From an uncultured Bdellovibrionales bacterium (lineage in GTDB: Bacteria > Patescibacteriota > Minisyncoccia > Moranbacterales > UBA1568), in the NCBI GenBank assembly GCA_964488025.1, contig CAZATJ010000002.1:13840-77839 (forward strand): a stretch of DNA of 64,000 nucleotides. Direction: 5' to 3'. Of this stretch, positions 4,731 through 62,871 are shown one piece after another (the stretch's first letter is position 1; the number at the start of each line of letters is the position of its first letter). Both the position numbers and the translations under genes were made by a program. The notes under the pieces were generated by a model. The model was not told where the DNA came from. It worked only from the letters and a program-made list of their open reading frames with translations, and ran no database searches.

Positions 4731-5675
4731 ATGAATGAAAATCAGCCGTATTTGTCGGTCGTTGTTCCGTTGTATAACGAAGAAGGAAACGTGAGGGAGC
4801 TCCATCGGAAAATTCGCGAGGCGGTCGAGAAGATTGGACGGCCGTTTGAAATTATTTTCGTGGATGATGGATCCAAAGACGGGACACTCGAGGCGGCCAA
4901 GGGACTGACTCCGCTCAAGCTCATTGCTTTCCGTAAGAACTTTGGTCAGACCGCCGCTTTTGATGCCGGTTTCAAGGCGGCAACGGGGGAAATCATTATT
5001 ACACTTGACGGTGATTTGCAGAACGACCCGGCTGATATCCCGCTTTTGCTTGAGAAAATGGCCGAAGGGTTTGATGTGGTGTCCGGCTGGCGCCATAAGC
5101 GTCAGGACCCGTGGAGTAAAAAGATTCCGTCGCGTATCGCCAACCTGCTCCGCAAGTTTCTCATTCACGATGATATCCATGACTCCGGATGCAGTCTGAA
5201 GGCCTATAAGCGCGAGTGTTTCAAGGACGTGGACTTGTTTGGTGAGATGCATCGCTTCATCCCGGCTATTTTGCAGCTTGATGGCTACCGGGTAGGTGAG
5301 GTGAAAGTGTCGCATCATCCACGCATCCACGGAGTGACCAAATATAATTGGAAGCGTGGCTTCAAAGGACTGGTGGATATGATTTCCATCTGGTTCTGGC
5401 GCAAGTATTCCAATCGACCGCTGCATCTTTTTGGGGCGAGCGGGGTCATCTTGTCCTTTGTCGGTACGGTTATTTTGGTCTGGATGATGATTGAAAAATT
5501 CTACTTCGGCGCCTCTATTTCCGAGCGCCTGTGGCCTCTGGTGGGTATCTTTTTTGTCCTGGTGGGTGTGCAGCTTTTTATTTCCGGTCTCTTGGCCGAT
5601 ATCATGGTACGCAACTACTACCAGGGTCGGGAGCGTATGAATTACAACATAAAACAAATAACAGAAAACAAATAA
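4731..5675 (+). CDS. GT2 family polyprenyl-phosphate glycosyltransferase (GtrB/DPM1/ArnC-like)
   Basis: Motifs: LSVVVPLYNEEGN, VDDGSKDGT, TLDGDLQNDP (DXD), two C-terminal TM helices. The last 10 codons (NYNIKQITENK) and the stop are encoded by the downstream CAAATAACA repeat. Confidence 0.85.
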   Translation: MNENQPYLSVVVPLYNEEGNVRELHRKIREAVEKIGRPFEIIFVDDGSKDGTLEAAKGLTPLKLIAFRKNFGQTAAFDAGFKAATGEIIITLDGDLQNDPADIPLLLEKMAEGFDVVSGWRHKRQDPWSKKIPSRIANLLRKFLIHDDIHDSGCSLKAYKRECFKDVDLFGEMHRFIPAILQLDGYRVGEVKVSHHPRIHGVTKYNWKRGFKGLVDMISIWFWRKYSNRPLHLFGASGVILSFVGTVILVWMMIEKFYFGASISERLWPLVGIFFVLVGVQLFISGLLADIMVRNYYQGRERMNYNIKQITENK

Positions 5676-5724
5676 CAATCAACGAAGAACGGGGAGCAAA
5701 TAACAGACAGCAAATAGCAATCAA
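5654..5724. repeat. four tandem degenerate 14-15-mers CAAATAACAnnnnnn / CAAATAGCAATCAAC immediately 5' of the four-helix-bundle gene
   Basis: Direct reading: caaataacagaaaa, caaataacaatcaac, caaataacagacag, caaatagcaatcaac. Confidence 0.7.
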
Positions 5725-5729
5725 CAGAA

Positions 5730-6089
5730 ATGTCACAAGATGTCTTGAAGGAAAAGATGGACGAGCTTGCTAAGGGCGTATATACCGTCACCAAGGTTTT
5801 TCCTAAGGAGGAAATATATGGGTTAACCTCACAAATACAGCGAGCATCACTGTCGGTTATCCTAAACTATATTGAAGGCTTTGCACGAACGGGGGATAAA
5901 GAATTTAAAAACTTCCTACAGATTTCCTATGGTTCATTAAAGGAAACCCAATATCTTCTTTTCTTTTGTACTCGTGAAGAATATATTAAAAAGGGAGACT
6001 ATGAGAAACTTATGAAGTTGTCAGACGAAATTGGGGCTATGCTTTGGAAAAGAATCAAAACCGTAAAAGAAAAAATCGCTAATAGTTAG
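5730..6089 (+). CDS. four-helix-bundle protein (23S rRNA intervening-sequence protein family, TIGR02436-like)
   Basis: Strong family match: YGLTSQIQRASLSVILNYIEGFAR and FLQISYGSLKETQYLL, the hallmark block of IVS-encoded four-helix-bundle proteins. 119 aa. Confidence 0.85.
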   Translation: MSQDVLKEKMDELAKGVYTVTKVFPKEEIYGLTSQIQRASLSVILNYIEGFARTGDKEFKNFLQISYGSLKETQYLLFFCTREEYIKKGDYEKLMKLSDEIGAMLWKRIKTVKEKIANS

Positions 6090-6112
6090 TTGCTGGTTGT
6101 TTATTGTTAATT

Positions 6113-6121
6113 GTTGATTGT
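6113..6121. repeat. GTTGATTGT, inverted copy of ACAATCAAC (5675-5683 and 5718-5725) flanking the four-helix-bundle gene
   Basis: Seen directly. The reverse complement of 6090-6124 (cataagacaatcaacaattaacaataaacaaccagcaa) mirrors the 5' flank aacaaataacaatcaacgaag. Confidence 0.6.
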
Positions 6122-6124
6122 CTT

Positions 6125-7435
6125 ATGAAAGTCACTTTTCTGGGGACCGGATACGTTGGTCTGGTGTCGGGTGCTTGTATGGCGGAAATCGGCCATGAGG
6201 TCATTTGTGCCGATATTGATAAGAAGAAGATTGCTCTCCTCAAAAAAGGTGGCATTCCGATTTATGAAATCGGTTTGGAAGAAATCGTGGAGCGTAATGT
6301 CAAAGAAGGACGCCTGACCTTTACCACAGATTTGAAAAAGGCTATCGAAGAGTCGGAAGTGGTTTTTATGGCGGTTGGAACCCCGGAAGACAAGGTGACT
6401 GGTCAGGCTGACCTGCAGTACGTGTTTGCGGCGGCGGAGACGTTTGGCAAACACCTGAACGGCTTTAAAGTTTTCGTTGACAAATCAACCGTGCCGGTCG
6501 GAACCGCTGAGAAGGTGGAGGAGATTATTAAGAAGGCATCAAAGGGGAAGCATCCGTTCGAAGTAGTGTCGAATCCGGAATTTTTGCGCGAAGGAGCGGC
6601 GGTGAAAGATTTTTTGAATCCGGATCGCGTGGTGGTGGGAGCGAAATCGGCCAAGGCTAAGAAGCTCATGGAGCAGGTTTATCGCCCGCTTGCTCGTGCC
6701 GGACGACCGATCATGTTTACCGACGTGCGTAGTGCCGAAATCATCAAGTACGCGGCCAACGCGTTTCTTGCCATGAAGATTACCTTTATGAACGAGGTGG
6801 CAAATTTCTGCGATGTCGCTGGAGGCAACGTCAAGGAAGTGGCCAAGGGCCTTGGTTACGACAACCGTATCGGAGGACGGTTCCTGTATGCCGGTATCGG
6901 GTACGGCGGATCGTGTTTCCCTAAGGACGTGAAGGCTTTCATTGAAACGGGGAATGAGTACAATTCTCATTTTCACATCATTGAGACCGTGAGTGAAGTG
7001 AACGAAGCTCAGCGAATCAAGCCATTCGTGAAATTGAAAGAAACGTTCGGCGGGAAATTAAAGAATAAAACCGTTGCCGTGTGGGGACTGGCTTTCAAGC
7101 CGCGTACCGACGACGTGCGGGAGGCACCGGGAATCGAGAACAGCAAGCTTTTTCTCGAAGAGGGTTGCAAGGTACGTGTCTTTGATCCGGTGGCGATGGA
7201 AAATGCCAAGAAAGTGCTTGCACATAAGAACCTGACCTATGCCAAGAAGGCACTGGATACCCTGAAGGGCGCTGATGCTCTGGTGATTTGCACGGAGTGG
7301 GATGAATTTCGAGTGGCGGATTATAAAGATATGAAGAAACTCATGAAGGGTGATTGTATCTATGATGGGCGTAACGTGCTTGAGCGTTCCGAGGCCGAAG
7401 CGAACGGATTTACTTATTATGGCATCGGAGTTTAA
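6125..7435 (+). CDS. ugd: UDP-glucose 6-dehydrogenase
   Basis: N-terminal Rossmann motif MKVTFLGTGYVGLVSG and catalytic GGSCFPKDV Cys motif. An in-frame upstream ATG at 6104 (MLIVDCLM) is supplied by the repeat module. The start at 6125 is favoured by homology. Confidence 0.9.
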   Translation: MKVTFLGTGYVGLVSGACMAEIGHEVICADIDKKKIALLKKGGIPIYEIGLEEIVERNVKEGRLTFTTDLKKAIEESEVVFMAVGTPEDKVTGQADLQYVFAAAETFGKHLNGFKVFVDKSTVPVGTAEKVEEIIKKASKGKHPFEVVSNPEFLREGAAVKDFLNPDRVVVGAKSAKAKKLMEQVYRPLARAGRPIMFTDVRSAEIIKYAANAFLAMKITFMNEVANFCDVAGGNVKEVAKGLGYDNRIGGRFLYAGIGYGGSCFPKDVKAFIETGNEYNSHFHIIETVSEVNEAQRIKPFVKLKETFGGKLKNKTVAVWGLAFKPRTDDVREAPGIENSKLFLEEGCKVRVFDPVAMENAKKVLAHKNLTYAKKALDTLKGADALVICTEWDEFRVADYKDMKKLMKGDCIYDGRNVLERSEAEANGFTYYGIGV

Positions 7436-7494
7436 GACAATAATCAATCACCAGTCAGCAATCAGTGGTGAGTAAATAGCAAGAGAACAAAAGA

Positions 7495-7983
7495 ATGAAA
7501 ACGGTGGTATATATTGATGGTGCAAATCTTCATCGGGGCACAGTAAATCTTGGCTGGAATTTAGACTATGCCCGTTTTCGAGTTTGGTTAGAAGATAAGT
7601 ATAAGGCGGAAGCGGTGTATCTTTTCATTGGGTTGATATCAAAAAACAAAGGTTTATATACTGCCTTGCAAGAGGCAGGATATATTTTGGTATACAAGGA
7701 AGTAACCTATGACGGAAGCGGAAAAGTGAAAGGGAATTGCGATGCTGAGTTGGTATTGAAAATGACTTCTGATTGCTATGAAAATCGTTATGATCAGGCG
7801 ATTTTGGTATCGAGTGATGGGGACTATGCCGGACTGGTGAGTTTTTTGAAAGAGAAGAGGAAATTTCGAGCACTTATTTCGCCGAGCAATAATTGCTCTT
7901 TTCTTTTGAGAAAATTGAATGTCCCCATTATCTATCTTGATACTAAAAGAGAAAAGTTAATGAAAAGAAAAAGCCCCCAATAG
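7495..7983 (+). CDS. NYN domain (LabA-like, PIN-fold) putative ribonuclease
   Basis: YIDGANL N-terminal acidic motif, CDAELVL and LVSSDGDYAGLV blocks typical of NYN/LabA domains. 162 aa. Confidence 0.65.
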   Translation: MKTVVYIDGANLHRGTVNLGWNLDYARFRVWLEDKYKAEAVYLFIGLISKNKGLYTALQEAGYILVYKEVTYDGSGKVKGNCDAELVLKMTSDCYENRYDQAILVSSDGDYAGLVSFLKEKRKFRALISPSNNCSFLLRKLNVPIIYLDTKREKLMKRKSPQ

Positions 7984-8011
7984 GTACGGATCCTACCAGG
8001 GTCTTTTTCAT
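7976..8011 (+). terminator. candidate intrinsic terminator after the NYN gene
   Basis: cccaatagg..cctaccaggg imperfect stem followed by tcttttt. Confidence 0.4.
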
Positions 8012-8058
8012 AGTGATGTCACCATTATACACCCGTTTTTATAGAAAGTCAATACAGT

Positions 8059-9225
8059 ATGAAAATATTGTTTCTCAATTACGAGTACCCGCCAATCGGG
8101 GGTGGGGCGAGCGTCGCGACCGAAGCGATCTTGCGCGAGTGGGCCAAAACACCGGAAGTAGAGGTGCATCTCGTGACCGCGGGTGTCGGCAGTGTTTTGG
8201 AGCACGTGCACGTCGGGGGCAATGTTTTCGTACATCGGCTGCCGATTGGGAAAAATCCGGAAAAGCTTCATTCGCAGTCATTGCGTGATATTTTTGTCTA
8301 TACTTTCAAGGCCTGGCTGTTTCTTGGGAGTTTTGTGCGTGAAGAGAATAAAAAGCAGAGATTCGATATCACCCTGGCATTCTTCACCGTACCTTGTGGG
8401 TTTCTCGCCTATCTTTTGAAGCTGTTTCGCGGTATTCCCTATGCGGTGTCGCTCCGCGGCGCCGATGTGCCGGGCTTCAGTGAGAAGTATGATACATTCT
8501 ATCTTTTCGCCAAACCGCTGGTGCGCTTTCTCTGGAGACAGGCGGAAAAAGTGATACCAAACAGTGTTGGTATCACGGAACTGGCCAAAAAAACAAATGC
8601 GGCTCAAGCGATGGAGATTATCGAAAACGGTGTCGATACGGAAACCTTTTGTCCAAAAAAAGAGAGTCAATCTGGAGAGCGAGTCCTGTTCCTTTCGACG
8701 TCACGCCTCACGCCGCGCAAGGGGATTCACCATCTGATCGAAGCGTTCGCCATAGCGGTGAAGCATGCGACAGTGTCGATGAAATTGCAACTGATCGGAG
8801 AGGGGGAACAGAAGGAATCTCTTGAGGCACGGGTTAAAGAGCTCGGTATCGAAACTCAGGTGGAATTTCTTGGACGAGTCGAACACCAATTATTGCCGCA
8901 GTTCTATCATCAAGCACATGTCTTCGTCTTGCCTTCCAAGAACGAGGGGATGAGCAATGCGGCACTTGAAGGACTGGCTTCCGGGTTGCCACTGGTTGTT
9001 TCTGGGACTGGTGGGATGCAGGAGTTGGTCACTGATGGGGTGAATGGATATTTCATTGACCCGGAAAACGTGGAATCCTTTGCTTCTACACTTGCCGCCC
9101 TCGCCAGCGATCGGGAACGACTGGCCGCCTTTGGTGCCGAGAGTCGTCGTCGGGCAGAGCTGCGCGGTTGGGATAAGGTCGCTCAGAATTTCCGCCGAAC
9201 ACTCGAACAGAGTATCAAAAAATAG
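8059..9225 (+). CDS. GT4 family glycosyltransferase (retaining, group-1)
   Basis: N-terminal KILFLNYEYPPIGGGAS and C-terminal EGMSNAALEGLASGLPLVVSGTGGMQELV (EX7E motif). Confidence 0.85.
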   Translation: MKILFLNYEYPPIGGGASVATEAILREWAKTPEVEVHLVTAGVGSVLEHVHVGGNVFVHRLPIGKNPEKLHSQSLRDIFVYTFKAWLFLGSFVREENKKQRFDITLAFFTVPCGFLAYLLKLFRGIPYAVSLRGADVPGFSEKYDTFYLFAKPLVRFLWRQAEKVIPNSVGITELAKKTNAAQAMEIIENGVDTETFCPKKESQSGERVLFLSTSRLTPRKGIHHLIEAFAIAVKHATVSMKLQLIGEGEQKESLEARVKELGIETQVEFLGRVEHQLLPQFYHQAHVFVLPSKNEGMSNAALEGLASGLPLVVSGTGGMQELVTDGVNGYFIDPENVESFASTLAALASDRERLAAFGAESRRRAELRGWDKVAQNFRRTLEQSIKK

Positions 9226-9290
9226 TTGTCCACATTTGTAAGTGGTCGTGGTGAAATGTGTACAGAGTGAAAATTTTAGAAAAGTAAAAA

Positions 9291-9347
9291 GCCGGGGAAC
9301 GTAGTTATCGTTCACCGGCTCTTGTTTTACCTGACGCGCTGGTCAGG
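9291..9347. terminator. bidirectional terminator pair between convergent genes
   Basis: gccggggaacgtagttatcgttcaccggc hairpin, preceded by aaaaa and followed by tcttgtttt. Then CCTGACgcgctgGTCAGG, a perfect 6-bp hairpin. Confidence 0.6.
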
Positions 9348-23017: not shown

Positions 23018-24412
23018 TTGGAACCTGCTTATAGTATAGCATTTTTCGCTCTTTTTTGTGCTATTCTTGGTTATATGGACTTTTTCAGACTGTTAAAGTA
23101 TTCTTTTTTCACGTTTCTTTTTCTACTGCCGCTGCAGACGGTTTTTTTGCTGCGCGAGCCGTTTGTTTTGGGGGAGAAGTGGCAGTATGGAACTATCGGG
23201 GTGTATGTCACTGATGTATTGTTGGTGGTCATGTTAGGCGTAGCCTTGTGTACCTGGTTGAGGAGTATAAAGTATAAAGTATCGAGTATAAAGTACGGGA
23301 GATCTGAAGCGGTACTGGTACTGTTTCTTTTGTGGGCGGGACTGTCGGTTGTGTGGGCGGGGGATCAAGTGTTGGCCTTCTCCTTTTTCATGAAATCACT
23401 CTTGGCGGCGGGTGTGTTCTTTTTGGCCCGATCGTTCGAGGAGGTGAGCGCGAAGAAAGTTATCCTGGTTCTTATGGCGGCTGGAATAATCCAGAGCGGT
23501 ATCGGAATAGGGCAGTTCTTGTTTCAACAATCAGTCGATTCCTCGATTCTCGGAACAAATGCCCACGAGGCCTGGCAAGCGGGCTCTTCCGTGCTTAAAA
23601 TCGACGGAGGGCCAGCCTCGCCGAGTCTAGGCGGGCGGTTTTTACGGGCTTATGGGACATTTCCTCATCCGAATATGCTGGGGGGATTCTTGGCTGTCAC
23701 ACTGGTATTCGGTATCGCGTACCAGGTATTATGCACGGCACGGCTGAAGAAAAACGAAAGAACACTCCTCCTTATTGGTTCAGTGATAGTCTTGCTTGGA
23801 TTGATCCTTACTTTTTCTCGTGTAGCTTGGTTGGGGTCAGGCTTTGGAATAGGGACATTGTTTGTATGGAGTTTTTTTTCAGGTGATACGCGAAAACTAC
23901 GGCCGTTGTTTTCGGGTATGTTCAGTAAAACCTTTTTAGTATTGATTGTGGCTGGATTAGTGTTTGTCACAGTGCTTCATGAACAAGTTTTCCCTCGTTT
24001 TGATGGAGCGACTATCAAACATGAAGGGTCGGTATCGGAACGGGTGCAATCTTTTCAGGATGCCGGTATGGTTATCGGTGAAGGAAATATACTGCTTGGC
24101 ACTGGTGTCGGAAATTTCACGGCAGAAGTCATGAGGCTGGAGCCGGAGCGTCCAGTATGGAGTATTCAGCCGGCGCACAATGTTTTTGTCCTGGTGTTTT
24201 CCGAGCTCGGTCTGGTAGGATTGCTGTTCTTCGTATTGTTTCTGTGGAGCGTGCTCCGAAACATGAAAAAACAAAGCGCGATATTCATTGTCGCGCTTTT
24301 CTCGTTACTTCCCATCCTTCTTCTCGACCACTGGCTGTGGACCTCTCACTTTGGACTTTTGCTTCTTTTTCTTCTCATCGGTCTTGCGATACGCCGAGAG
24401 AGGCAGTCATAA
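23018..24412 (+). CDS. O-antigen ligase/polymerase-like (Wzy_C-like) polytopic membrane protein
   Basis: 464 aa, about 11 TM helices with a central periplasmic loop. No unambiguous catalytic motif, so this is a family-level call. Confidence 0.4.
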   Translation: MEPAYSIAFFALFCAILGYMDFFRLLKYSFFTFLFLLPLQTVFLLREPFVLGEKWQYGTIGVYVTDVLLVVMLGVALCTWLRSIKYKVSSIKYGRSEAVLVLFLLWAGLSVVWAGDQVLAFSFFMKSLLAAGVFFLARSFEEVSAKKVILVLMAAGIIQSGIGIGQFLFQQSVDSSILGTNAHEAWQAGSSVLKIDGGPASPSLGGRFLRAYGTFPHPNMLGGFLAVTLVFGIAYQVLCTARLKKNERTLLLIGSVIVLLGLILTFSRVAWLGSGFGIGTLFVWSFFSGDTRKLRPLFSGMFSKTFLVLIVAGLVFVTVLHEQVFPRFDGATIKHEGSVSERVQSFQDAGMVIGEGNILLGTGVGNFTAEVMRLEPERPVWSIQPAHNVFVLVFSELGLVGLLFFVLFLWSVLRNMKKQSAIFIVALFSLLPILLLDHWLWTSHFGLLLLFLLIGLAIRRERQS

Positions 24413-24541
24413 CGAGTCTTTCCAGCCAAATTCGCTATAGAAAACCCCATTTATCGAATGCTCAATGGCTTGTATGAGGAATTCTCGGCATGATGTTTAT
24501 CTTATTCTTATCACCTATCACTCATCTCCTATCATGACTCT

Positions 24542-33456: not shown

Positions 33457-33533
33457 AGCAAAGCCTTATACTAAGTAATTAACAATTGTTTCTATTGTAG
33501 AGAAAATCGCTGTTTTTGGCAAACATCTGCTAT

Positions 33534-33646
33534 TGACTTTATCTATTTTTTATGCTATCATATGCAGTCAGTATAGATTTTACTGATATAGGTACGTAGT
33601 CCTTGAACAATTTATTTTTTGGTCTAGTGACCAGAAGGAGTAAATC
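33534..33646 (+). promoter_or_regulatory. promoter (TTGACT-16-TATCAT) plus conserved 5' leader, copy 1
   Basis: About 75 nt is near-identical to 34496-34570. The hairpin TCAGTAtagatttTACTGA starts about 7 nt after the -10 box. Confidence 0.55.
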
Positions 33647-34372
33647 ATGACAAACGCTTTTGAAAGACAGGTCCGTTCACTCTATTCATTAGGAGCGACG
33701 ATTCGTCCAGAACACAGCGCCTGGCTAAGCCCACCTTGCAAAAGTCATTTCGTGACCGTGGTGGGCGGAGACGGTGACTTCGCGTATTCAATCATCGAAT
33801 GGCTGATCGAGTATGTGGGCGTGCCAGCCGAACAGATTGTTTTTGTCAGTCATCTCAGCGCTTATCCGAGTTTGAGCGAGGGATATTTTCAAGGCCACTT
33901 CATTGGTGAGAATGCTGACGATGAAGGGAGAGTGGTACGGCAACAAAAGTACGAGAATGTCACTCGACTCAATTCTCTGGGTGGATACTGTATCAATTAT
34001 TACACCGATGACTTGCAGTATCAGCCGGTTCGGGGTACCCATCTGGCTATTATCGCTCTTTCGAAAGGGATCAATTCGATCGATCGTGTGACGTCACCGG
34101 AACCAATTCCAAATTTGGAGAGTGATGATCCGGTCTTCCAACAGCAATACAAGGAGTGGGAAGACAAGATGAAGACGCGTTTTCTTTTGGCGGGCGCCCA
34201 TGACGCCAATGCCAGAATGGATCTGATGCGAGTGCAAGGCGAGCTTACTTCACTGGGTGTTACTACGACAACAGTCGTGGACACGGAGAACTGGCTTCCG
34301 CAGCAGATTTGGCTGAAAGCGCTGTTTGAATGCTACGCATCTCTTTGGAAGCCGGTTTTGCTAGACAAATGA
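33647..34372 (+). CDS. hypothetical protein
   Basis: 241-aa ORF with AAGGAG RBS. No family recognised. Confidence 0.45.
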   Translation: MTNAFERQVRSLYSLGATIRPEHSAWLSPPCKSHFVTVVGGDGDFAYSIIEWLIEYVGVPAEQIVFVSHLSAYPSLSEGYFQGHFIGENADDEGRVVRQQKYENVTRLNSLGGYCINYYTDDLQYQPVRGTHLAIIALSKGINSIDRVTSPEPIPNLESDDPVFQQQYKEWEDKMKTRFLLAGAHDANARMDLMRVQGELTSLGVTTTTVVDTENWLPQQIWLKALFECYASLWKPVLLDK

Positions 34373-34484: not shown

Positions 34485-34598
34485 CTTGACCATAACTCTT
34501 TTTTATGCTATCATATACAGTCAGCATAGATTTTGCTGATACGGGTACGTAGTCCTTGAACAATTTATTACCCCTTTTGAAGGGGAGAGAGGCAGAAA
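34485..34598 (+). promoter_or_regulatory. promoter (TTGACC-18-TATCAT) plus conserved 5' leader, copy 2
   Basis: Hairpin TCAGCAtagatttTGCTGA shows a compensatory U-A to C-G change versus copy 1. A second hairpin CCCCTTttgAAGGGG abuts the RBS. Confidence 0.55.
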
Positions 34599-50745: not shown

Positions 50746-51474
50746 ATGGAATTGTTTGGTGTCACTATCAGTCAATCCTCTCCCGACGAAGTTTTGGCAC
50801 AAGTCGGGAGTTTTTTAAATGAACCGAAGTTTCATCGTATCGCGACGGTCAATCCGGAATTTCTCGTGTTAGCTGAAAAGAATCCGGAATTCAAACAGGC
50901 GCTCCTTGCTGCTGATCTGTGCGTGGCCGACGGGATTGGTATCGTGCTCGCTGGATGCTTTCAAAGGAAAAGAATCACTCGTTTTCCCGGTGTTGATCTG
51001 CTTCACGAAATTCTCACTCTGGCCGAGCGCGATGGTTACGAGGTGTCCCTTGCTATTCGTAAAGATGGCCTGTCTTCGTACGAAGAGATTCGAGCGGCTC
51101 TTTTGAAAAAATATCCACGCCTTGTAGTCACGGGTAAAGACTATACTGTGCAATCTATCACTTCGCCGTCACTTATCCCTTATCCTGCATCACCTATCAT
51201 TATTTGTAATTTCGGTGCGCCCGATCAAGAACTCTTTCTCGAAAGTATCAGGAATAATTCCGGTGAGGTGCGGTTAGTTCTGGGTGTCGGCGGAGCATTC
51301 GACTACCTGACTGGCAAACAAAAACGCGCCCCCAAGTGGCTGCGTGCGATAGGCCTCGAATGGCTCTGGCGTCTCACCCTCCAGCCCAGACGATGGAAGC
51401 GCATCTGGAACGCAGTGGTTGTTTTTCCTTGGCTCGTCTTTCGTTCTTGGCAGAATGCTAGAAAAAGGTTATAA
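50746..51474 (+). CDS. WecG/TagA/CpsF family (GT26) glycosyltransferase
   Basis: IATVNPEFLV, CVADGIGIV, FLGAPDQE-like NFGAPDQELF, GVGGAFDYLTGKQKRAPKWLR blocks. Confidence 0.8.
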   Translation: MELFGVTISQSSPDEVLAQVGSFLNEPKFHRIATVNPEFLVLAEKNPEFKQALLAADLCVADGIGIVLAGCFQRKRITRFPGVDLLHEILTLAERDGYEVSLAIRKDGLSSYEEIRAALLKKYPRLVVTGKDYTVQSITSPSLIPYPASPIIICNFGAPDQELFLESIRNNSGEVRLVLGVGGAFDYLTGKQKRAPKWLRAIGLEWLWRLTLQPRRWKRIWNAVVVFPWLVFRSWQNARKRL

Positions 51475-51489
51475 TTAAGCCACAATTTT

Positions 51490-51519
51490 CGCTAATTGCT
51501 ATTTGTTGATTGTTTTATG
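51490..51519 (+). repeat. solo copy of the right-end motif of the four-helix-bundle module (CGCTAAT...TTGTTGATTGTTTTATG)
   Basis: cgctaattgctatttgttgattgttttatg matches 6085-6127 cgctaat...ttgttgattgtcttatg. It again creates an upstream in-frame ATG (MLFVDCFM) before gltX. Confidence 0.6.
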
Positions 51520-53049
51520 TCAGAAAACGTTCGTGCCCGTTTTGCGCCATCACCGACGGGGTATATGCATGTCGGGAACTTCCGCACGGCGCTGTATACC
51601 TATCTTTTTGCGCACAAGCAAAAGGGGACGTTTATTCTCCGGATTGAGGATACCGATCAAAAACGGTACGTTCAGGATGCCTTGGAGAAATTGATTGGTA
51701 TTTTGGACTGGGCTGGTTTTAAGTATTCCGAAGGGGTCTTTATCGAAAACGGAACGGTCATCCAGAGGGGTGATGTCGGGCCATATATCCAGTCAGAACG
51801 CCTGGATATCTATAAAAAATATGCTCACCAGGCCATTGCCGATGGATGGGCGTATCACTGTTTCTGTACGCCAGAACGCCTGGAAGCAATGCGCAATGAA
51901 CAAACGAAAGCAAAACAAGCACCGATGTATGACCGCCTGTGTTTGCAATTATCTCAGGAAAAACAGGAAAAAAAAATTTCTGCCGGTGAATCATTTGTCA
52001 TACGACAAAAAATCGATACTGAAGGCTCGACCCAGTATGAAGATCTCGTTCGTGGGACAGTGGAAATTAAAAATAGCCTGCTCGATGATCAAGTGCTCAT
52101 GAAATCGGATGGCTATCCGACGTATAACTTTGCCAATGTTATCGATGATCATTTGATGGGCATCACGCATGTGACTCGTGGTGAGGAGTATATATCGAGC
52201 ACCCCGAAATATGTGCAATTGTATCAAAATTTTGGTTGGGAAGTTCCAAAGTTCGCGCATCTGCCACTTTTGCTCAATCCCGATAAATCAAAACTCTCGA
52301 AGCGCCAAGGTGATGTCGCCGTAGAAGATTATATTGCCAAGGGATATCTCAAGGAAGCAATCATTAATTTCGTCATGCTTCTTGGTTGGAACCCCGGGAA
52401 GGGGAGTACCCAAGAGATTTTCTCTTTGGATGAATTAGCGAAAGTGTTCGATTTCGCCCAGATTCACAAAGGCGGGGCGGTGTTTGACCTGAAAAAATTG
52501 GATTGGATGAATGCTGAATATATCAAAAAATTATCCGTCGACGAACTCTATGAGAGGGCGCTCTCCCTCGGCGTGTTCGAGAACGAATTTTTCGCTGCGG
52601 TGCCGGCAGCCAAAAAAGAGGCTTCGTTCATGAAGAGGGTGCTTTCCGTGGAACATGACCGTCTGGTGCGACTCTCCGATATCGGCGTGCAGAACCCTTT
52701 CTTTTTCTCGGATGAGCTTTCGTACGATGGGAAGCTCCTCAGCTGGAAAGAGAATGACGCTGCGCTCACCAGGGCCTCTCTGGAGCAGGCAGAGAAACTA
52801 CTCGGCGCATTCGATGCTGCCACTTGGGAGAATCTCAAAATAATCGAAGAAAAATTATTGGCAGAGGCAGACAGGCGGCCCGACCACAGCCCGGAGGGCA
52901 GTGTGACGGGTAAAGGCGACTTCCTTTGGCCGCTGCGGGCGGCGTTGACGGGTGCTGAGCGTTCCCCGTCACCGGCTCAGGTGGTTTGGGTACTTGGGAA
53001 GAAGGAAAGTCTGATGAGGCTTGAAAATGCGCTTAAAAAGCTTTTATAG
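51517..53049 (+). CDS. gltX: glutamyl-tRNA synthetase
   Basis: HIGH motif PSPTGYMHVGN, KMSKS-like KLSKRQG. Confidence 0.9.
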   Translation: MSENVRARFAPSPTGYMHVGNFRTALYTYLFAHKQKGTFILRIEDTDQKRYVQDALEKLIGILDWAGFKYSEGVFIENGTVIQRGDVGPYIQSERLDIYKKYAHQAIADGWAYHCFCTPERLEAMRNEQTKAKQAPMYDRLCLQLSQEKQEKKISAGESFVIRQKIDTEGSTQYEDLVRGTVEIKNSLLDDQVLMKSDGYPTYNFANVIDDHLMGITHVTRGEEYISSTPKYVQLYQNFGWEVPKFAHLPLLLNPDKSKLSKRQGDVAVEDYIAKGYLKEAIINFVMLLGWNPGKGSTQEIFSLDELAKVFDFAQIHKGGAVFDLKKLDWMNAEYIKKLSVDELYERALSLGVFENEFFAAVPAAKKEASFMKRVLSVEHDRLVRLSDIGVQNPFFFSDELSYDGKLLSWKENDAALTRASLEQAEKLLGAFDAATWENLKIIEEKLLAEADRRPDHSPEGSVTGKGDFLWPLRAALTGAERSPSPAQVVWVLGKKESLMRLENALKKLL

Positions 53050-57728: not shown

Positions 57729-57957
57729 GGAAATCCCCTTTCTTGGGAGGTTGGATTTTGGACAAGTATTTTCAAGGTACGCTGTCCATGATAGCACAAA
57801 ATATACTTTTTGTCAACCCTGCTTGGCAGGGAATTCTCTGCTACAATGAAAACATGATGAGTGATGCTAGATAGAGAAACAGCATGACTTGCCTCGATTT
57901 TTCTTAGGTATTTCATATCATTTATCCTGTATCACTTATCTCTTATTATCTTCGAAT

Positions 57958-59589: not shown

Positions 59590-59618
59590 CCTACCCGAAG
59601 GGCTGTAAATTTTTAACG

Positions 59619-59645
59619 GCTGAGGACATGGGACGAAGTTGGAAC
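59619..59645. repeat. 27-bp array repeat, copy A (GCTGAGGACATGGGACGAAGTTGGAAC)
   Basis: Matches the consensus GCTGAGGCTCTGGGACGAAGTTGGAAC at 24 of 27 positions. Confidence 0.75.
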
Positions 59646-59650
59646 TTTTA

Positions 59651-60193
59651 TTACCTCAGGTTTTTGAAGCAATTCAACCAAGTTGGCCACCAAGGAATTG
59701 AAACAAAAGCAATTATTAAGCTTGTTAAGCTTGTGATGATGAGAATATGTTTTTTTATGTATTCTAATGTTTTATTAGAAGTCTTGTTTTGAATATTTCT
59801 TCCCTCTTCTTTTTGAATACTATTGATTTTTAGGTTTTCAAGCGTTATTGAGTGCCCACTAATTTCTTTGATTTTTCCTGATATCTTAATTTTTGTTTTT
59901 TGGTGTAATGTTTTTAATTCAGGGTTTTCTTCCAGACTGATCGAGCCATAGATGGAAGGGTAAACACCATTGAGATCAACCATAGTCACCCAAAAGAGTT
60001 CATCTTCAGGAGAGGGGTCTTTGTCATACGGAAAGGAGGGATGGTTTTCTTTATATGGATTATACAAACTTCGAAAGAGAACTGTCCATTCACATTGAAG
60101 ACCAATATATCCTTTTTCAGCTTCCTTTTGGAGATATACTGGCATTTTAGAGACAGCATTGATAATCTCAATTGGGTTGGGTTTTATATTCAT
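59651..60193 (-). CDS. hypothetical protein with C-terminal TM helix
   Basis: 180-aa ORF at low GC. No family. Confidence 0.4.
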   Translation of the reverse strand: MNIKPNPIEIINAVSKMPVYLQKEAEKGYIGLQCEWTVLFRSLYNPYKENHPSFPYDKDPSPEDELFWVTMVDLNGVYPSIYGSISLEENPELKTLHQKTKIKISGKIKEISGHSITLENLKINSIQKEEGRNIQNKTSNKTLEYIKKHILIITSLTSLIIAFVSIPWWPTWLNCFKNLR

Positions 60194-60453
60194 AAAAAAA
60201 TACGGCGAAAATATTATGTGCTGGGAAAGAAGGGAGGTCTCGCTGCTCTCCGCCGGTTGGCGGATGCGCTCTATAGGGCTTCCCTGCCCGAAGTGCTACA
60301 TCGTTGCAGGCGGGCGCCCTCTAGCCCGGCAAAGCCGGTCACCTCAAACGGACAAACGGGTGTTTTCCCGACCCCTCTTCTCGTTCGATCCCTTTACCTC
60401 TACAGAATAAAAGAAAATCACCATACCCACAAGGGGCATAGCGATTTTTCTTA

Positions 60454-60480
60454 GCTGAGGCTCTGGGACGAAGTTGGAAC
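60454..60480. repeat. 27-bp array repeat, copy B (consensus)
   Basis: gctgaggctctgggacgaagttggaac. Confidence 0.8.
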
Positions 60481-60503
60481 GTATTTACGGAATCAAGCGG
60501 TTT

Positions 60504-61544: not shown

Positions 61545-61554
61545 AAAACTATGT

Positions 61555-61581
61555 GCTGGGGCTGTGGGACGCTGTTGGAAC
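61555..61581. repeat. 27-bp array repeat, copy C (gctggggctgtgggacgctgttggaac)
   Basis: 23 of 27 match to the consensus. Confidence 0.7.
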
Positions 61582-61595
61582 TTATTTGTCTTATT

Positions 61596-62759: not shown

Positions 62760-62811
62760 ATTTTTTTATATCATAACACAAAAGCACCATTTTAGGTGCT
62801 TAAAAGTCTTA

Positions 62812-62838
62812 GCTGAGGCTCTGGGACGATGTTGGAAC
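62812..62838. repeat. 27-bp array repeat, copy D (gctgaggctctgggacgatgttggaac)
   Basis: 26 of 27 match. Confidence 0.8.
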
Positions 62839-62871
62839 CTATTTATTGCAAGAATTACCCTAATTAAAGCC

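Follow-up and report, generated by a model that had tools for sequence, protein, structure and literature searches.

The gltX gene follows a WecG/TagA gene in the window, by which we mean the whole stretch of DNA that was analysed (64,000 nucleotides), and 42 nt separate the two genes. The features of this locus are as follows:

51447 to 51475, + strand: sigma-70-type promoter of gltX (TTGGCA, 17-nt spacer, TATAAT)
51482 to 51516, + strand: predicted 5′ UTR of gltX, about 35 nt, U-rich, unstructured and without a Shine–Dalgarno (SD) motif
51489 to 51516, + strand: solo heptad array, four tandem 7-nt units, abutting the gltX ATG with zero gap
51517 to 53049, + strand: gltX, glutamate–tRNA ligase, 510 aa, Pfam PF00749 (E = 1.7e-108) and PF19269

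The identities of gltX, WecG and the ugd, NYN and GT2 genes discussed below are backed by Pfam. The gltX promoter agrees with the consensus at 11 of 12 positions and is the sole match between 51300 and 51600, where 0.3 would be expected. It is embedded in the 3′-terminal part of the WecG/TagA gene; its −10 box overlaps the WecG/TagA stop codon and precedes the array by 13 nt. The related loci L088, L090, L092, L093, and L176 keep the block aaaaagg(c/t)TATAAT(c/t)aagcca, and L175 carries TACAAT. Given this conserved promoter, transcription should start near 51482, approximately 7 nt past the −10 box, and the array would make up 28 of the ~35 leader nucleotides, that is, ~80% of the predicted gltX leader.

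The fold of 51482–51560 is weaker than that of shuffled sequences (z = +1.17), and none of the motifs GGAG, GAGG, AGGA, and AAGG occurs within the 18 nt before the gltX ATG. An SD-like motif precedes just 12 of the window's 58 genes, so that initiation without SD is normal for this organism. A search against Rfam at gathering thresholds returned zero RNA families across the window, neither a T-box or other aminoacyl-tRNA synthetase leader nor an rRNA. Differing small minus-strand ORFs without a Pfam match occupy the WecG–gltX spacer in the relatives L090 (2521–3000), L175 (816–1500), and L177 (907–1500). One database protein (P0141, 731 aa) corresponds to a WecG–GltX fusion or read-through.

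The gltX array and the arms of a PF05635 module belong to one heptad-repeat family

The units of the gltX array read, in order, TCGCTAA, TTGCTAT, TTGTTGA, and TTGTTTT, followed by the ATG, and TTG recurs at a 7-nt spacing at positions 51496, 51503, and 51510. The sequence cgctaattgctatttgttgattgttttATG (51490–51519) thus stands directly 5′ of gltX. Its reference copy is found upstream of ugd, where two repeat arms enclose a small gene:

5646 to 5729, + strand: A-rich left arm, ~12 CAANNAA heptads, overlapping the last GT2 codons and abutting the ATG of the four-helix-bundle gene
5730 to 6089, + strand: four-helix-bundle gene, 119 aa, PF05635 (E = 7.5e-31), 23S rRNA intervening-sequence protein family, bAvd-like
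6083 to 6124, + strand: T-rich right arm, six heptads, abutting the ugd ATG at 6125; reference copy for the gltX array

The PF05635 gene is present as a single copy in the window (tblastn), and homologues of its product are named Candidatus Moranbacteria. The right arm consists of the units TAGTTAG, TTGCTGG, TTGTTTA, TTGTTAA, TTGTTGA, and TTGTCTT, again followed directly by ATG, and the sequence cgctaat...ttgttgattgtcttATG before ugd spans 6077–6127. Units of the left arm include CAAATAA, CAATCAA, and CAAATAG. Tandem Repeats Finder reported periods of 7, 14, and 21 across the flanks of the four-helix-bundle gene, and of 7 and 14 for the left arm, which forms an inverted repeat with 6082–6115. 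When the segment 5636–6135 was folded, the arms paired in both the minimum-energy and the centroid structure, with the ugd AUG within the stem.

The preliminary description of this DNA had noted that the leader of gltX resembles the right end of the module. This likeness was borne out. With up to two mismatches, TTGTTGATTGTYTTATG occurs in the 64-kb window only at 6111, before ugd, and at 51503, before gltX; shuffled sequences gave a mean of 0.02 matches compared with the two observed. The same two sites are the only ones in the window with at least three consecutive TTG heptads (TTGNNNN). We also scored the window with a position matrix trained on the module arms only, the gltX leader being kept out of the training. 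The leader reached 24.6 bits over three units, near the arms' own scores (23.7–26.4 bits overall, and 23.7–26.2 bits for the left arm on the minus strand). It exceeded the best score of every one of 30 shuffles (median 14.6 bits, top 22.9 bits). In addition, TTGATTG and CTATTTG of the gltX array are identical to module-arm units. We conclude that the gltX array is of the same heptad-repeat family as the module arms, reading like the T-rich right arm and like the reverse complement of the A-rich left arm. The 7-nt periodicity is the key to the nature of the motif; the preliminary description had matched the sequences correctly and overlooked their tandem structure.

A chance match in AT-rich DNA was considered and rejected. 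The motif is T-rich and of low complexity, and the element CGCTAAT alone, with four copies in the window against 6.9 expected, is not over-represented. The expectation of 0.02 versus two sites for TTGTTGATTGTYTTATG, a matrix score above all shuffles and the conservation in the orthologous leaders of other species leave this explanation a virtually negligible probability. CGCTAAT, no rarer than chance predicts, had been taken for a retained 3′ end of the four-helix-bundle gene. It is not conserved at the gene end in L008 or L009, and TTGCTAA occurs as a unit in the L008 arm. CGCTAAT is best read as a degenerate outer heptad.

Translation starts of gltX and ugd

An in-frame ATG seven codons upstream of the expected start had been claimed for both genes. 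The codon in question proved to be TTG at both sites (6104 for ugd and 51496 for gltX). The array could, in principle, be coding and supply seven-residue extensions, MLFVDCF to GltX and MLIVDCL to Ugd: the TTG codons at 51496 and 6104 are in frame with no stop between, and the frame is also kept in L088 and L090. Gene callers and homologues, however, begin at the ATG. In public annotations of identical contigs, ugd begins at ATG 6125 and gltX at ATG 51517, and GltX homologues have N-termini of the form MS..VRVRFAPSPTGY. Relatives that lack the array begin at the same conserved MS..VRVRF. The upstream peptide owes its conservation solely to that of the underlying DNA repeat, and a coding role of the array is exceedingly improbable.

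Other repeats in the window

Besides the two module arms and the one strong solo set of heptads (gltX), the 64 kb of the window contain a single weak set and another heptad family. The weak set precedes the NYN gene:

7438 to 7494, + strand: A-rich NYN leader with left-arm-like heptads (CAATAAT CAATCAC CAGTCAG CAATCAG ... TAAATAG) and a small hairpin

The preliminary description had listed this leader as a weaker relative of the motif. The likeness of its units to the left arm is real, as CAATCAC, CAGTCAG, and TAAATAG are one-mismatch variants of left-arm units. Its score is another matter: the segment 7438–7465 reached 17.1 bits, which lies inside the upper range of the shuffle maxima and is not significant alone. 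The NYN gene (7495–7983) and its heptad-like leader (7437–8058 of the window) form an insertion relative to L008 (8046–) and L009 (11711–), where a GT4 gene comes directly after ugd and the NYN gene is absent. In L010 (11732–11900), all that is left is a segment that matches the 3′ end and terminator hairpin of NYN (aaaagaaaaagcccccaatagg...). In L055, an NYN gene (8682–9329) is bracketed by CTTGAAA-type arrays.

The second family has the unit TATCAYY. One of its arrays (57916–57946) is separated by 11 nt from the downstream ATG (57958) of a PD-(D/E)XK nuclease gene, and another (24509–24534) lies in the convergent spacer between a Wzy_C-type gene and rtcB. The segment 61791–61818 (ttcatggttatctgtcttttgcttattg) scored 19.9 bits by the arm-derived matrix, above the 95th percentile of the shuffle maxima, in a region of small overlapping ORFs. 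An 84-nt direct repeat beginning with TTGAC (33533–33616 and 34486–34569, 89% identical) is positioned ~30 nt upstream of the neighbouring genes at 33647 and 34599 (GT2) and looks like a duplicated promoter plus leader. A 39-nt repeat is present in four copies with 72–95% identity (59614–59652, 60449–60487, 61550–61588, and 62807–62845) in spacers between tandem minus-strand genes, ending ~5–10 nt upstream of a minus-strand ATG in the two cases read. Finally, (AGTATAA) ×4.6 at 23262–23295 lies in a stop-free frame within the Wzy_C (O-antigen ligase-like) coding region.

Distribution of the array at gltX in relatives

Three species have the array at their orthologous gltX leaders, namely that of the window, its sister L088, and L090. 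The host and these two relatives are Moranbacteria-like species. The units are GTGTTAA, TTGCTTT, TTTTTGA, and TTGTTTT in L088 and TCGCTAA, TTGTTGT, TTGTTGA, and TTGCCTT in L090; the unit number is four in all three leaders. Read from the alignment, the arrays are 84–88% identical among the three species, despite the saturation of the fourfold-degenerate sites of gltX in the same genomes (42–52% identical). The leaders of ugd and gltX, each from three species, form a gap-free alignment of six sequences over ~30 nt up to the ATG. The last two units and the start codon, TTGATTG-YYTT-ATG, are invariant in all of them.

The array is missing in five interleaved relatives (L092, L093, L175, L176, and L177). 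L092 is 94% identical to L090 in GltX and yet array-less, and so are L175 and L176, the sister branch of the window and L088. The array-less leaders of the five relatives are ~25 nt long and have little in common beyond the promoter. They differ in length from the array-bearing ones by 17, 20, and 26 nt; none of these values is a multiple of 7, so that a simple unit-wise expansion is not evident. The patchy distribution indicates either that a nearly identical sequence was gained at least twice or that the array was lost several times, and it implies that the array is dispensable. In the species that have it, the array is under constraint or was copied from a conserved template.

Heptad arrays and PF05635 genes in other genomes

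We compared 80 genome loci of the Candidate Phyla Radiation (CPR; L008–L087) around relatives of the four-helix-bundle protein. In most of them, the PF05635 gene is flanked by complementary heptad arrays whose unit varies by lineage, for example CATGAAA/TTTCATG or TAACAGT/ACTGTTA. The gene order GT2, four-helix bundle, ugd is kept in 13 of the 80 loci. Period-7 arrays on both sides were found for 38 of 87 PF05635 genes, compared with 18 of 661 other ORFs, and four of these 18 are divergent PF05635 genes. The arrays also bracket genes for ribosomal protein L11, NusG, ribosome recycling factor (RRF), NifU, an NYN protein, and RNase III; double-flanked genes among those for RNase III, NusG, L11, RRF, and NifU lie at L063:17670–18356, L040:7248–8348, L035:14019–14573, and L059:9159–9608. 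The arms form more stable duplexes within a locus than between loci (median −60.9 vs. −49.0 kcal/mol). Selection on a sense-RNA stem between the arms gave no signal, as transition mismatches were G·U-compatible in 72 cases and A·C in 96 (p = 0.08).

In total, the CPR loci hold 237 period-7 arrays in 1.22 Mb, 149 of them not beside a detected PF05635 gene. Compared with control positions, arrays of the 80 loci more often abut an ATG-initiated ORF (38% vs. 16%) and are more often mostly non-coding (53% vs. 16%). Their orientation to the downstream genes shows no strong bias (52 A-rich vs. 38 T-rich). By the arm-derived matrix, solo T-rich arrays of the same family stand 8–10 nt before the asnB ATG in L009 and L012. 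L010 has a solo array ~16 nt before asnB, and in L029 a solo T-rich array lies 8–10 nt before the ATG of a small membrane ORF. The preliminary description had offered a recurring 5′-UTR or translation-initiation element as one reading. Its anatomical part holds, for the element sits between promoter and ATG and recurs at gltX and asnB; the functional part is put forward here on inference.

The architecture extends to cyanobacterial plasmids, where five of six loci (L178–L183) have a PF05635 gene between complementary heptad arrays. At the Nostoc edaphicum plasmid locus, GTAGGGA is repeated seven times on one side and TCCCTAC five times on the other. In L182 (Anabaena sp. 90 plasmid pANA02, 42771–46103), the PF05635 gene, with long GGTGACA/TGTCACC arrays, sits between cas6 and cas4 in a type I-D CRISPR locus. 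It is our speculation that such arrays might explain the listing of “23S rRNA IVP” as CRISPR-array-associated (PMC10910872). Our literature searches, which took in the TAACTGA article and the Nostoc preprint compared below, found no published description of PF05635 genes flanked by heptad repeats, and their bracketing by complementary heptad arrays thus appears to be undescribed in the literature searched.

Two further ideas about the relation between solo arrays and arms were dropped. The gltX array of the window has nine 9-mers in common with its own module arms and zero to four with the arms of other genomes. Genome-specific concerted evolution of solo arrays and arms was nevertheless rejected, as the highest sharing was with the own genome for the window and L012, and not for L009, L010, and L029. 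Pairing in trans between the gltX leader and the left arm would give a 31-bp imperfect duplex of −24.9 kcal/mol, a value reached by 0.3% of shuffles. Several unrelated coding segments of the window pair equally well or better, and the idea was abandoned because the pairing is non-specific.

Interpretation

The array is built of tandem heptads akin to the module arms, lies between promoter and ATG, and is conserved in three species. From its position and conservation we infer that it is probably functional and that its function may be translational. Most likely, although at somewhat less than an even chance, the gltX array is an SD-independent translation-initiation or regulatory leader of gltX. 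The conserved promoter of gltX would transcribe the array as most of a short U-rich leader, ribosomes would load onto this open leader without an SD motif, and a heptad-binding factor could help or regulate initiation. A similar role has been proposed for the TAACTGA repeats of Beggiatoaceae (PMC4679880) and for Nostoc heptamers (bioRxiv 10.1101/2022.06.06.494920). Several points count against a leader function. The array is patchily distributed at gltX and dispensable, and a recent copy of a conserved template, without any constraint, could account for its high similarity between species. The CPR arrays also lack a strong orientation bias towards downstream genes. Furthermore, any insertion into a 42-nt spacer of a compact genome abuts the next start, which makes adjacency alone weak evidence.

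The array might instead be neutral or selfish repeat DNA devoid of a function of its own. It would have arisen in a short spacer permissive to such sequence, either through replication slippage or because the module arms or other arrays were copied there or acted as donors in conversion. Its tolerance would follow from the fact that an SD-less leader in this organism has no requirement other than to be unstructured. This explanation is a serious one, though on balance rather unlikely. The abundance of period-7 arrays in the CPR loci agrees with it, as does the patchy occurrence at gltX with its repeated gains or losses. The excess of 9-mers that the window array has in common with its own arms fits intragenomic copying, but an own-genome excess was seen in the window and L012 and not in L009, L010, and L029. 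Neutrality is also difficult to reconcile with an interspecies identity of the array that persists where synonymous sites are saturated, and with four units being stable in three species, unlike a slippage-prone microsatellite. An improbable alternative is that the four-helix-bundle protein of the PF05635 family, or a different factor recognising heptads, uses the array as a cis site. The PF05635 gene would then be autoregulated via its bracketing repeats, with gltX, ugd, and asnB in a post-transcriptional regulon. The strong enrichment of double flanking arrays at PF05635 genes and the same architecture on cyanobacterial plasmids speak for such a link, and a heptamer-binding protein has been postulated both by MacGregor (PMC4679880) and in the Nostoc preprint. 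However, the heptad units vary widely by lineage while the protein is fairly conserved, the arrays flank many unrelated genes too, and the association could reflect how the PF05635 gene inserts.

The preliminary description had also suggested that the array is a footprint of an excised or decayed copy of the module. In this case, a PF05635 module would once have lain between promoter and gltX, leaving its right arm behind. The array does resemble the right arm and ends at the ATG exactly as that arm does at ugd, and ORF-less complementary arm pairs exist in other CPR loci (e.g., L054, 10788–10905). Yet eight related WecG–gltX junctions (L088, L090/L091, L092, L093, L175, L176, and L177) contain no PF05635 gene, and neither do the surroundings of gltX in 80 more distant metagenome loci. 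The 42-nt spacer contains neither a left-arm remnant nor an ORF remnant, relatives do not conserve CGCTAAT where the PF05635 gene ends, and no complementary partner arm was found 3′ of gltX, the pairing of this flank being no better than that of shuffles (−11.8 vs. a shuffle mean of −13.7 kcal/mol). As all gltX junctions examined are devoid of a PF05635 gene, the excision reading is unsupported, and we consider it very unlikely.

Taken as an SD-independent leader, the gltX array is a small feature: a repeat-built SD-less leader on an essential gene, which adds a CPR example to the poorly understood heptamer repeats at start codons. The PF05635 context outweighs the gltX motif itself in importance. 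We know of no function for PF05635 genes outside diversity-generating retroelements. The repeat families that bracket these genes also stand alone before housekeeping genes, which provides a concrete candidate for a protein–repeat link. A functional tie of the PF05635 protein to heptad repeats in CPR bacteria and cyanobacteria, either as a heptamer-binding factor or as cargo inserting into heptad hairpins, is a long shot. If true, the solo arrays in front of gltX, ugd, and asnB would serve a post-transcriptional network as its cis sites, the protein's own gene being bracketed by such repeats too, and two old puzzles would be joined, namely the function of the PF05635 protein and that of the bacterial heptamer (STRR/TAACTGA) repeats. 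For annotation, caution is advisable, as heptad arrays may be mistaken for CRISPR arrays or coding extensions.

Comparison with known systems

RNase III excises 23S rRNA intervening sequences, some of which contain a PF05635 ORF. The module at 5646–6124 resembles them in layout: its complementary flanks form a long stem, and the loop contains the PF05635 ORF. Unlike them, it resides between protein-coding genes in a window without rRNA, and its sense-RNA stem shows no sign of selection. The gltX array differs from the module in having neither an adjacent PF05635 ORF nor a partner arm. Bacterial A/U-rich, unstructured, SD-less leaders rely on ribosomal protein S1 for translation and are not normally made of periodic repeats. 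The gltX leader is likewise U-rich, unstructured, and directly 5′ of the AUG, in an organism where most genes are SD-less, but it consists of a periodic repeat common to other loci.

The heptamer repeats of heterocystous cyanobacteria are the STRR sequences reportedly described by Mazel and coworkers in 1990. As in these and the Nostoc repeats, the units of the CPR arrays are contiguous, 7 nt long and close to promoters and start codons; phylum and unit sequences are different. In the study of Nostoc recF/recO, contiguous heptamer repeats near start codons altered reporter expression, and a binding partner of the repeats was postulated (bioRxiv 10.1101/2022.06.06.494920). Deletion of the Nostoc repeats changes reporter output.

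The closest known analogue of the gltX array is the TAACTGA heptamer direct repeat found upstream of start codons in Beggiatoaceae, Cyanobacteria, and Bacteroidetes (MacGregor, 2015; PMC4679880). These repeats come in two to six copies within short intergenic spacers, ~90% of which have no SD motif, and they mostly face the start codon and end a few nucleotides from it. It has been suggested that a post-transcriptional regulator acts at them, with a postulated binding protein, and the idea that a repeat-binding protein might be the mobile element was raised as well (PMC4679880). The terms “S23” and “four helix” have zero occurrences in that article. The gltX array agrees with the TAACTGA repeats in having at least two tandem 7-nt units (four), in being intergenic and oriented to the start codon (its end at 51516 adjoins the ATG at 51517), in the lack of an SD motif in the spacer and in the functionally unrelated genes downstream. 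It differs in its degenerate unit, TTGYTNA, and in its host, a Moranbacteria-like CPR bacterium; the units TAACTGT and TAATTGT of close relatives are one or two positions off TAACTGA. The heptad family described here also forms complementary arms around a PF05635 gene, an arrangement that the TAACTGA article does not report.
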